Assembly (NCBI GenBank): GCA_963693365.1
Contig: CAVNZM010000005.1
Span: 6,761,888-6,825,887 of the forward strand
Source of the DNA: Amoebidium appalachense
Lineage: Eukaryota > Protista > Ichthyosporea
Direction: 5' to 3'
DNA length: 64,000 bases
Shown: in pieces, positions 40,790 through 43,700 of the stretch
Layout of the letters: every line of letters starts with the position of its first letter
How positions within the stretch are numbered: the stretch's first letter is position 1
Translations under genes and position numbers: made by a program
The notes under the pieces: model-generated
What the model saw: only the letters and a program-made list of their open reading frames with translations
What the model was told of the DNA's origin: nothing
Database searches by the model: none

Positions 40790-43700
40790 TCAGTGGTCAG
40801 CCAACTTGGCATAGCTAGGTGGGGAGAACTTATACTTAACATACTTAATGACGTACAGGGGCAAACAGCTAACGATTGTAATCACAGCCACGCGCCACAT
40901 AAACCCCCAATGCTTTACAAACCCCAGGTTGAAGTACTCCGGGAGGAACAGCATCGAGCCGAAATAAACCCCCACACTGAAAATTTGCGACGCGACCATC
41001 GCCCAGTGCCACCGGTGAATATTCAGCGCCACCATGAGTAATTCGGTAAAAATGAGAGCGGTAAACGAAATCGCAACGATATTCACAAACTCTCCGACGT
41101 CGAAAGCCAGCAACGCGCCGAGAATTATCGCCGCACCCTGGTAGGTGCTGATAAGCAACCAACCAAAAAAGGTCTTTAGAGTCAGCGCCCGCCCCTTGGT
41201 AAGATCCTTGTAGAGCTCTGGGTAGAGTAGAACGAGGTGTTCCGGAACGTCTTCGTCAAGTACCAATGAGAAGACAGGACACATGGTGTAGACGGTCGTG
41301 TATCCGACCATAAGAACACCTTGGTAGAGGGCCACGGCACTGAAATAGAAGATGGCGCTGAAAACTGCTTGCATGACGCTGATGATCAGGCCCCTGTGTG
41401 TGCGTGTGTGTACGTGTACGTGTGTGTGTGTGTGTGTGTGTGTGTGTGTGTGTGTACGTGTGCGTATATGTGTGTGTGTGTGTGTGGGGGGGGGGGCGCG
41501 GAGGGGGGGTAGTACGTTTGAGTACATGTGTATGTGTGTGTGTGCGTGTTTGGTGCACGCATGTGTGTGTTGTGCATGTGTGTGTGTTTTGTGTGTGTTT
41601 TGTGTGTGTGTGTGTGTGTGTGTGTGTGTGTGTGTGTGTGTGTGTGTGTGTGTGTGTGTGTGTGTGTGTGTGTGTGCTTACATCTGTGCAGGTGTGTGTA
41701 TGTGTGTTGTGTGATGCACAAAGGTACTTCCATCTTTTTATCGCCATCTTGTCCTACATCATCACTTTTGTGTGCGTGCATGCCCTATGGGAAAGGACGA
41801 GATGAAGAGAGAGAGGACCGAGGAAGGAAGAAAGGAGGCAAGATGGAGGTGGGGGAGGGGGGAGGGAGGAAAAGGAAGTAATGAGAGAACGAGGTGCAGG
41901 GGGCGGAAGCGGGACTGTGGGGGAAGAAAGTCCTTGCAGGGGGGGGGGGGGGGGGGGGAAGGGGGGGGGGAAGAAGGGGGGGAGGGGGGAGGAGGTGGGC
42001 CGGAAAGTGGAGAAACGTGAAGCAAGTAACACACACACCTGTGAATGACAAACTGAGCGAGTGCAGCCGATCTCTTATAGCTGTTTCTGCCGTGGTACAT
42101 GAGCAAGGGCACCACGTGCTTGAACTTGCTGAGGCTGAAATCTGCAGCCAGCGAGGCCTGCCTGCCCTCCTTGCCCTCCAGACCGACACCCACGTCGGCT
42201 GCCTGGATCATGCTGACGTCATTGCCTCCGTCACCTATGGCTAGCGTGCGCATGCCTGTGTAGATCTGCGGGGGTAGTGGTGGGGTTCAGGAAGAAGGAA
42301 TGGACGGGGGGCAGGGAAGGGAGACAGAGAGAGAGAGAGAGAGGGGGGGGGGGGGGGGGGGGAGGGAGGGAGAGGGAGAGGCAGTGGGGGAGAGAGAGAG
42401 ATGGGGGAAGGTGGGTGAGGGGAGGGAGAGGAGGGAGAAGGGTAGGTGGGGGGCGGGGAGGGAATCGGGAGAGGGGGGGGAGAGAGAAAGAGGGGAGGGA
42501 AGGAGGGGGCCGGGGGGGGGGGGGGGGGAGAAAGAGAGAGAGAGCGAGATCGAGGGGATGGTCATTGCCACGTATTTGTAACACCCTAGCTGCCTAGTCT
42601 TCCACTACTCTCTCCTCCCCTCCCCCCCATCACCTTCAACACACACAAACACCCACACACACCCCCCCCCCCCCCCCACTTTTCCCACCCACCTTGTGTA
42701 CATTCGCCCACAGGCATGCTGTTACCTCCCCGCACAAGAAACCCTTCAAAATTCATAATCCCACCTCCCCACCCTCATCAGCCCCCTCCTCCTCCCCTCC
42801 CTGCAACCAACTCCTCCCCCCTCCCCATCCCCGAACACCCACCCACCCACCCATCCATACCCAGCACAAATCCCATCCCCCCCCCCCCCTCCCTCCCCCC
42901 CTCCCCCCCCCCCCCCCCACCAAAAAAAACCATCCCTCTCACCTGTATCTTCCTGACTATATCCGCCTTCTGTGTAGGGCTGCATCTACAGCACACGACA
43001 GCAGGGGCACCACAGGCCAAGGCCATAAACTCAGTCTCACACAGCTCCAGGCACAGTCTGAGACTGGTGCCGTCAATAACAAGACAGCAGTCGGTCTTCT
43101 TGCGGAAGGCGGTGAGTTCGAGTTGAAGATCCGCCCTGTAAGAGGAAGAGGTTGAGAGGGTTGGGTAGGGGCGGAAGAGAGCCGATTTGGAAGGCGGGAG
43201 AGGGGGGAGAGGGAAGGGGAGGGGGAGGGGTGGACAAGAGAGAGGGGAGGGGTGTTAGAATGCCGAACACGGTGCTAAGTACGGTACACAATGAGAAACA
43301 CGGTACAGGACACATGCAAAGGAAAACATTCAAGTATGCAACACCAGCAACACCAGCAACGCGAGCAGTGCGGGGGGAGGGGGGACGGGGGGGGGGGGGG
43401 GGGGGGGGTTTGAATGCGTCAAAAAGTACGAAGTACACAAGAACAAACGGATAACACGATGCAGAATGCAAGCCATACATAAAGAGTATGCATAATAAGC
43501 AGAGCCCATCCTCAGGGGGGGCCCACGTCATCCACAGTACCCGAGTTTCGACCTATTCCCCTCGTTAACGAAACCCAACTCAGATACTGTTTCACTTGAA
43601 CATGAGTAGGTCACCCGTCTTGATCAGAGACGAGCAGGGTTGCTTATGCAGGCAAGGGCAGTGGGAAAGGCCGGGGGTTAAAGTTGCAGCAGTAAGCAGA

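Follow-up and report, generated by a model that had tools for sequence, protein, structure and literature searches.

A candidate split-core hammerhead ribozyme at the 3′ end of a probable Chlamys-type Penelope-like retroelement of Amoebidium appalachense

Can a hammerhead ribozyme keep its core when the chain joining its CUGAnGA strand to stem II is opened and the stem II strand is moved about 100 nt upstream? The question is raised by a repeat on the minus strand of a 64,000-nucleotide stretch of the ichthyosporean Amoebidium appalachense (GenBank assembly GCA_963693365.1, contig CAVNZM010000005.1, positions 6,761,888 to 6,825,887; hereafter the window). Three copies of this repeat, A, B and C (Table 1), carry the strands of a hammerhead core at the 3′ end of what is probably a Chlamys-type Penelope-like element (PLE). 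We consider it likely that they encode an active hammerhead of knotted order, with the CUGAnGA/stem II block split and rejoined by a four-way junction and with a predicted cut after GUU at 43577. Core letters, their order and the complementarity of the stems can be read directly in the sequence, from which we infer fold, chemistry and role.

Core strands and the predicted opening of the 9/10.1 link

Hammerheads have been described as combinations of three blocks, C, G and S, of which the non-circular orders SGC and CSG cleave in vitro (Eckert et al. 2023, PMC10085705; statements on published systems refer to the accessible portions of the papers cited). In copies A, B and C the order GUU, CGAAAC, CUGAGGA is identical, giving S, G, C in place of the C, G, S order around a three-way junction that defines types I, II and III. 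The core is complete in all three: C3 U4 G5 A6 N7 G8 A9, G12 A13 A14, the A15.1-U16.1 pair, H17 and the G10.1-C11.1 pair, flanked by stems I, II and III of 3-4, 5-6 and 9-13 bp, with one stem III mismatch in B. A first-pass annotation of this locus, made from the sequence alone, had placed the core strands at these minus-strand positions in each copy, and all the stems that it quoted pair as described; its account of stem III holds apart from an A x C mismatch in copy B, which it left out. That the core is not a circularly permuted type I, II or III hammerhead, and that its stem II partner lies upstream, is borne out as well, and the cut that it predicted at 43577/43576 agrees with the position expected by analogy.

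The strand before GAAA finds its best stem II partner in a GACC-Y-R segment about 100 nt upstream (-7.7, -9.3 and -8.7 kcal/mol in A, B and C, respectively), whereas the alternative partner after A9 is weak (-2.6, -4.7 and -5.6 kcal/mol). The bases after A9 pair instead with the 5′ end of the motif, forming helix IV, and a hairpin of 8-9 bp, hairpin V, is placed between helix IV and G10.1. Because helix IV takes up the bases after A9 and hairpin V precedes G10.1, the covalent A9-G10.1 link is predicted to be replaced by a four-way junction that includes closing helix IV and hairpin V. The predicted centroid fold of copy C, as a monomer, is a nested frame of helix IV, hairpin V, stem III and the tie helix that connects stems I and II; hairpin V appears in the centroid of C and is absent from that of A. 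Stems I and II together contribute about 17-19 kcal/mol of stacking, a figure before loop costs, and the constrained fold of copy C comes to -54.8 vs -65.3 kcal/mol.

Across the alignment of the three copies, 97.3% of 147 cells are paired and 4 of 49 pairs are changed on both sides, a count that is descriptive only, the structure having been derived from the same three related copies. Double changes were as high in 8 of 500 shuffles, and slid controls were 35-43% paired. The fifth pair of stem II (43608/43554) changes from U-A to C-G between copies. In the tie helix, 7-9 bp long, one U.G pair is replaced on both sides by A-U in C, and another becomes C-G in B and C by a single change. Variants within the repeat were read from pooled, unphased contigs, 4,453 from run X1 and 3,998 from X3, two runs that may derive from the DNA source of the window itself, with X20 also used; run X12, in which C>T and G>A changes predominate, was excluded. 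The same stem II pair, 43608/43554, varies on both sides at similar depth (2.8% and 4.1% in X1, 3.7% and 3.1% in X3, depths of 1436 and 1434 in X20), and none of the 12 substitutions listed at a frequency of at least 1% in the pooled contigs falls on a core position. In the contigs of runs X9 and X20, which are possibly RNA and by their nature cannot display a cut end, no accumulation of ends was reported. Contigs lying on 43512-43609 and behind 43564 have loose ends and joints that reveal additional subfamilies, which share the G and C blocks but differ in stems or 5′ parts, one of them with a much shorter middle.

The motif is not a product of chance. An architecture descriptor, composed only after the motif was known, matches copies A and C but not B in the window, as well as 1 of 80 related metagenome loci, and has no match in 12.4 Mb of dinucleotide shuffles (3.84 Mb and 8.56 Mb). 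When only the sequence around fixed core words is shuffled, 24 and 31 sequences per 20,000 pass (0.12-0.16%). Of 120 viral loci chosen beforehand for their core words by a looser pattern in about half of the viral collection, one matches the descriptor; this match lies apparently in phage coding sequence and was judged a false positive, a rate of about 1% given the words. An exact-pattern scan of the viral contigs yielded three loci, none with the stems, and a protein-based scan of them found no relative. Rfam 15 contains no matching family for the window, for copy A or for the related motif of a metagenomic element (L074, below); window and copy A give only a partial Hammerhead_1 match of 14.2 bits (E 2.7), in keeping with the earlier expectation that standard descriptors would miss the motif. 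Readings of the window motif as an HDV-like (hepatitis delta virus-like), twister or pistol ribozyme were dropped, given this lack of an Rfam match and a hammerhead core that explains the conserved letters.

Relatives and published hammerhead systems

Related elements carry the same wiring in other sequences. A profile of 55 related proteins collected the 80 metagenome loci, many of which have short 3′ flanks. One of them, L074, is a tandem metagenomic Naiad with a 969-codon open reading frame (ORF), and the split form lies near its 3′ end (5145-5300). Its stems differ wholly from those of the window copies: stems I and II have 5 bp each, the tie helix 9 bp and helix IV 5 bp, and there is no hairpin V. 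Seven further loci (L009, at 6050-6170, and L012, L013, L016, L018, L024 and L056) belong to one PLE family with an S, G, C hammerhead core in the 3′ untranslated region; here stem I has 5 bp and stem III 8 bp, block C sits in the loop of a 7-bp helix, an A stands before GAAA, and stem II is weak or ambiguous.

Published Naiad consensus sequences extend the comparison. The last 330-420 nt of 53 of the 54 consensus records in the supplement of Craig et al. 2021 (PMC8557442) were inspected by eye and with motif searches, a span from which motifs further upstream would escape. Eight of the 53 ends (Bfor, Amil, Aacu, Anas, Movir-2, Plae, Obim and Ovul) show the full split wiring, with helix IV, hairpin V, stem II, tie helix and blocks S, G and C in turn; they represent five lineages with unrelated stem sequences, Aacu having two mismatches, and Esco appears to be a worn ninth case. 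In these eight ends the sequence after CUGAnGA never forms more than two pairs with the strand before GAAA. Another eight records, all from nematodes (Ppac, Parc, Nbra-1 to -3, Hcon, Hpol and Asuum), hold complete unsplit type-CSG hammerheads as judged by eye, a type so far published from two metagenomic sequences only (PMC10085705), and several arthropod records show an SGC-like form. The 3′ ends of Movir-1 and Chem-4 hold twister-like motifs where other Naiads have their hammerheads. With CSG hammerheads or twister-like motifs found at the same place in other Naiad ends, the Naiad 3′ position looks like a slot for ribozymes. A third conserved and apparently structured 3′ motif occurs in Chem-1, Chem-2, CGi, Sglo, Olur, Tgra, Pmar, Skow-1, Skow-2, Pfla-1 and Pfla-2; it starts with GRCGGGUG, holds GCAGG and CACCUG, has no hammerhead core and is a candidate for another ribozyme or a signal.

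The closest published form is type SGC (HRIMA-1 and variants, PMC10085705), which shares with the window motif the S, G, C order, two core pseudoknots, the linker between stems I and II, the tie helix at the distal ends of these stems and the U after CUGAnGA. Type SGC keeps block C whole, whereas in the window motif the stem II strand is found some 100 nt upstream, with two additional helices occupying the gap; the SGC examples are at most 104 nt long and metatranscriptomic, whereas the window motif is about 160 nt long, genomic and situated in a retroelement. Eckert et al. assume an uninterrupted block C, and their descriptor demands the stem II strand right after CUGAUGA[U]G; for type SGC it also needs CUGAUGA, a stem I of 4 bp and linkers no longer than 8 and 15 nt (PMC10085705). 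In the window copies, the 0-2 nt after CUGAnGA where an unbroken block would begin its stem II strand lead only into a weak possible helix, the best partner being upstream. The window motif would work like a type-SGC hammerhead, yet its block C is broken. It has the same cyclic order as type CSG, and moving the tie strand, stem I strand and CUGAnGA of CSG to the 3′ end gives the window arrangement, but CSG retains the joint between CUGAnGA and stem II and has neither helix IV nor hairpin V (PMC10085705).

The canonical and minimal type I hammerheads of PLEs share with the window motif the G10.1-C11.1 pair and an unpaired base at 9/10.1 (PMC4209133). They differ in their C, G, S order, three-way junction and short palindromic helix III that needs a dimer, whereas the window motif has the reversed order and a long stem III; the minimal dimeric form is marked by a palindromic loop on a helix III of just 1-2 bp, against 9-13 bp for stem III of the window motif. 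The PK hammerhead, which resembles pistol (Zhan et al. 2024, PMC11300833), likewise combines hammerhead chemistry with altered connectivity and an extra helix IV. In that RNA, however, a pseudoknot replaces helix II, and A9, G10.1, C11.1 and G12 lie in one short stem-loop, the core not being opened at 9/10.1. The 9/10.1 link is known to tolerate a single extra base (PMC3705267; PMC4209133; the SGC descriptor in PMC10085705), which makes it a plausible site for opening the chain. Other reports, in their accessible text, describe core variants only and no opened 9/10.1 link (PMC3088659, PMC13725137, PMC10162972, PMC11300833 and a 2026 retrozyme preprint).

The first-pass annotation had proposed the architecture as a candidate new one. 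Its strand order is not new, being that of type SGC, whose stem I-II helix corresponds to the "outer" stem of that annotation (PMC10085705); the undescribed feature, noticed there only in part, is the predicted splitting of the CUGAnGA/stem II block with its four-way junction. A full-text literature search, with most subscription papers and most of the Eckert supplement outside its coverage, found no published description of an opened 9/10.1 link or of permuted hammerheads in Naiad or Chlamys. Craig et al. reported the Naiad/Chlamys clade to be without canonical hammerheads and flagged eight "half-core" cases, Naiad_Ovul and Naiad_Esco included (PMC8557442). These "HHR_core" and "HHR_half_core" remarks concern the same clade and the same 3′ position as the window motif, and the accessible part of that report proposes no fold for them. 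The RNAs of Eckert et al. did not come from genomes of known organisms, one weak GCS candidate excepted, so far as the accessible text goes (PMC10085705).

If the split core is real and active, the published assumption that the CUGAnGA block is uninterruptible falls, and a further natural hammerhead topology is added. Non-circularly permuted ribozymes, hitherto drawn from environmental RNA, would then have a place in high-copy eukaryotic retroelements. The view of a major Penelope-like clade spreading without hammerheads would need revision, and the role of ribozymes in PLE transposition would become testable there. A 9/10.1 opening that takes two helices would also offer a new insertion point for aptamers.

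Mechanism, conflicting evidence and alternatives

In the proposed mechanism, helix IV, hairpin V, the tie helix and stem III would form the nested frame first, and stems I and II would then close as two pseudoknots and restore the familiar core. As in other hammerheads, stem II would be stacked on the A9.G12 pair, with the chain leaving after A9 along helix IV and coming back in at G10.1 from hairpin V. Cutting at 43577/43576 would proceed by the standard hammerhead transesterification, with G12 as base and the 2′-OH of G8 as acid, leaving a 2′,3′-cyclic phosphate and a 5′-OH. Type I PLE hammerheads sit in pseudo-long terminal repeats (pseudo-LTRs) and are proposed to process tandem transcripts (PMC4209133); by the same proposal, tandem pseudo-LTR transcripts of the present element may be cut to unit-length, ligatable RNAs. 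Cutting is probably slow or conditional, since each copy in the genome runs uncut through the predicted site.

A number of observations weigh against an active split-core ribozyme. Stem I has only 3 bp in A and B, and the A x C mismatch of copy B falls on the third pair of stem III. Pseudoknot-free folding finds forms about 9 kcal/mol lower that bury the core strands in A (-52.1 vs -42.9 kcal/mol) and B (-45.8 vs -36.9 kcal/mol). Helices IV and V show no double change among the three copies within this genome; support for helix IV comes from the relatives. Two population variants break pairs: G43616 to A (9.8% in X3) in hairpin V, and G to C at 43522 (2.9% in X1) at the end of the tie helix. 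The split form is absent from the other 79 of the 80 metagenome loci, including the four closest (L004-L007), many of these loci having short 3′ flanks, and no Chlamys record shows it at any of the 47 [TC]CGAAAC sites of the Craig et al. supplement (PMC8557442). The Chlamys-type ORF piece and copy A do not form one continuous stretch, the ORF end being separated from the copy by 1.4 kb of other sequence. All three copies lie in sense orientation in P4-ATPase gene introns. In another PLE, the PAc element, hammerhead cleavage depended on protein, and insertion in vitro did not require the hammerhead (PMC11167929). Fast constitutive cutting in particular is disfavored by the intact copies, the sense intron location, the lower nested folds of A and B, the 3-bp stem I and the PAc result.

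Some of these points could equally mean that the fold is real and catalysis has been lost in this repeat family, leaving a structured relic that is retained as a signal for protein binding or priming, or is passively copied along with a successful repeat. Copies uncut across the site, their sense position in introns, a 3-bp stem I with a GUU site, the competing folds and the dispensable PAc hammerhead (PMC11167929) would all suit such a relic. Two subfamilies only 73% identical nevertheless retain every core base while their stems change, no core base appears among the listed variants, and the same core recurs in distant Naiads; we therefore regard a relic as unlikely. The buried core strands could instead be freed by dimerization, with the palindromes of the hairpin V loop and of the linker pairing between two RNAs. 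Both palindromes belong to segments by which the core is masked in the off folds: in A and B, G8-A9 can be covered by pairing with the 5′ strand of hairpin V (-9.7 kcal/mol), and CGAAA by pairing with the linker. Homoduplexes are predicted to be more stable than two hairpins (-29.6 vs -17.8 and -15.8 vs -3.4 kcal/mol), although any hairpin scores well in this comparison. A 6-nt palindrome in or across the hairpin V loop is found here, in Bfor and in Movir-2, that is, in three of six lineages, but palindromic loops are missing from the coral-type, Plae and Octopus records, L074 lacks hairpin V altogether, and the linkers of the relatives, at 0-8 nt, carry no palindrome. The frame of copy C folds as a monomer, and a long stem III removes the classical reason for dimeric PLE hammerheads (PMC4209133), so that activation by dimerization seems rather improbable. 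Nor is a dimer, which the first-pass annotation had considered possible, required: all core stems, including the 9-13 bp of stem III, can form within one copy, and the second palindrome to which it drew attention is explained as a simple hairpin, absent from the relatives.

An ordinary unsplit type-SGC hammerhead would take stem II from the bases just after CUGAGGA, through a 2-nt bulge and 4-6 mostly G.U-rich pairs, and would make the upstream GACC pairing an off state. The U-GG after CUGAGGA is as in published SGC ribozymes, and a downstream helix of 4, 5 or 6 bp is possible in A, B and C. That helix is 3-5 kcal/mol weaker than the upstream pairing, however, the U-A to C-G change follows the upstream partner, and neither L074 nor the eight Naiad records offer a downstream partner; this arrangement is accordingly very hard to credit. 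A chance combination of short hammerhead words and stems within a repeat finds some support in the post hoc tuning of the descriptor and its one false match among the 120 word-selected loci, but the empty shuffles, the low pass rate with the core fixed, the six helices and the recurrence at the 3′ ends of related elements in different sequences leave it next to no probability, and L074 and the Naiad records largely refute it.

Beyond the preferred split-core ribozyme of the window, a wider picture is somewhat favored. Naiad and Chlamys elements would carry hammerheads whose cyclic order is reversed and whose opening point varies, giving CSG, SGC and the split form, which is opened within the catalytic strand. 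The split form would be common to animal Naiads and the Chlamys-type element, and in the window family hairpin V might serve as a kissing-loop switch that couples cutting to the pairing of two element RNAs.

The element and its surroundings

The Penelope-like (Naiad/Chlamys) context noticed at first pass is supported by a Chlamys-type ORF piece with an adjoining related tail (Table 1). The protein that this piece matches, P0001 (938 residues), has an N-terminal GIY-YIG, a CxC (CPC), a DKA and the reverse transcriptase motifs GIPMG and YIDD. Its PF01541 match (residues 27-79, E 3e-4) lies just under the cut-off, and the GIY-YIG spacer has a single cysteine, with no CCHH cysteines between GIY and YIG. 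As judged from these motifs, the architecture fits Chlamys, an N-terminal endonuclease-positive (EN+) PLE. Chlamys elements insert at (C)n and (CA)n and leave 5′-truncated and partial tandem copies; in keeping with this, some ten related tails of the window terminate at or next to C-runs, and several tails are truncated. The ribozyme-bearing repeat is probably a Chlamys-side example, part of a Chlamys-type Penelope-like retroelement, an assignment that we infer from the shared tail and its adjacency to the ORF piece and from the C-runs, and not from one continuous element. A tblastn search with 152 proteins found no second ORF piece in the window.

Table 1. Positions of the repeat copies, the parts of copy A and related element sequences in the 64,000-nt window
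Feature	Positions	Strand	Remarks
Copy A, whole predicted split-core hammerhead	43490..43652	-	~160 nt
Copy B	50715..50875	-	95% identity to A over 380 nt; A x C mismatch in stem III
Copy C, second subfamily	51390..51552	-	73% identity to A and to B; GUU 51480-51478, CUGAGGA 51412-51406, stem I 4 bp
Upstream repeat body, copy A	43653..44100	-	pooled contigs cover to the edge of the stretch examined
Helix IV 5′ strand, copy A	43637..43647	-	outer 7 bp 43647-43641, inner 3 bp 43639-43637
Hairpin V, copy A	43613..43635	-	8 bp; loop with UGAUCA (43626-43621); ends directly before G10.1
Stem II 5′ strand, copy A	43607..43612	-	G10.1 = 43612; GACC 43612-43609; displaced upstream of cleavage block
Tie helix (stems I-II; "I" helix of type SGC), 5′ strand, copy A	43600..43606	-	
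Block S, copy A	43574..43590	-	stem III strand 43590-43578, GUU 43579-43577, U17 = 43577, stem I strand 43576-43574
Predicted cut, copy A	43577/43576	-	by analogy with hammerheads
Linker hairpin between stems I and II, copy A	43560..43573	-	contains CGUUAACG palindrome; weak, -1.7 kcal/mol
Block G, copy A	43534..43555	-	stem II strand 43555-43550, CGAAAC 43550-43545, G12-A14 43549-43547, stem III strand 43546-43534
Tie helix (stems I-II), 3′ strand, copy A	43522..43528	-	
Half block C, copy A	43509..43518	-	stem I strand 43518-43516, CUGAGGA 43515-43509
Helix IV 3′ strand, copy A	43495..43508	-	begins one U after A9
Element 3′ tail, copy A	43385..43494	-	C-run at end; related tails elsewhere in window
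Chlamys-type Penelope-like ORF piece	45478..45804	-	C-terminal 109 codons; 100% identical to P0001 residues 830-938
Related 3′ tail directly abutting the ORF piece	45805..45912	-	77% to 43447-43520
Further truncated tail, same repeat superfamily	4049-4340	+	starts at GAAAC; CUGAGGA region replaced by C-run
Further truncated tails, same repeat superfamily	11232-11357, 36801-36870, 38573-38601, 43244-43348, 49934-50067, 51103-51196, 52795-52872	-	

Three minor features lie elsewhere in the window. An intronless ORF of 606 codons (18156-19976, minus strand) matches no Pfam family above the cut-off, in a region that is otherwise intron-rich. In the P4-ATPase gene, an exon acceptor with the first ~20 bases of the exon occurs three times in tandem (51857, 52084 and 52287, minus strand), with two degenerate downstream. 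On the plus strand, two matches to C/D-box small nucleolar RNAs, snoZ122 at 59963-60047 (43.5 bits, gathering threshold 38) and SNORD27 at 60282-60353 (39.1 bits, gathering threshold 52), may form a small cluster.

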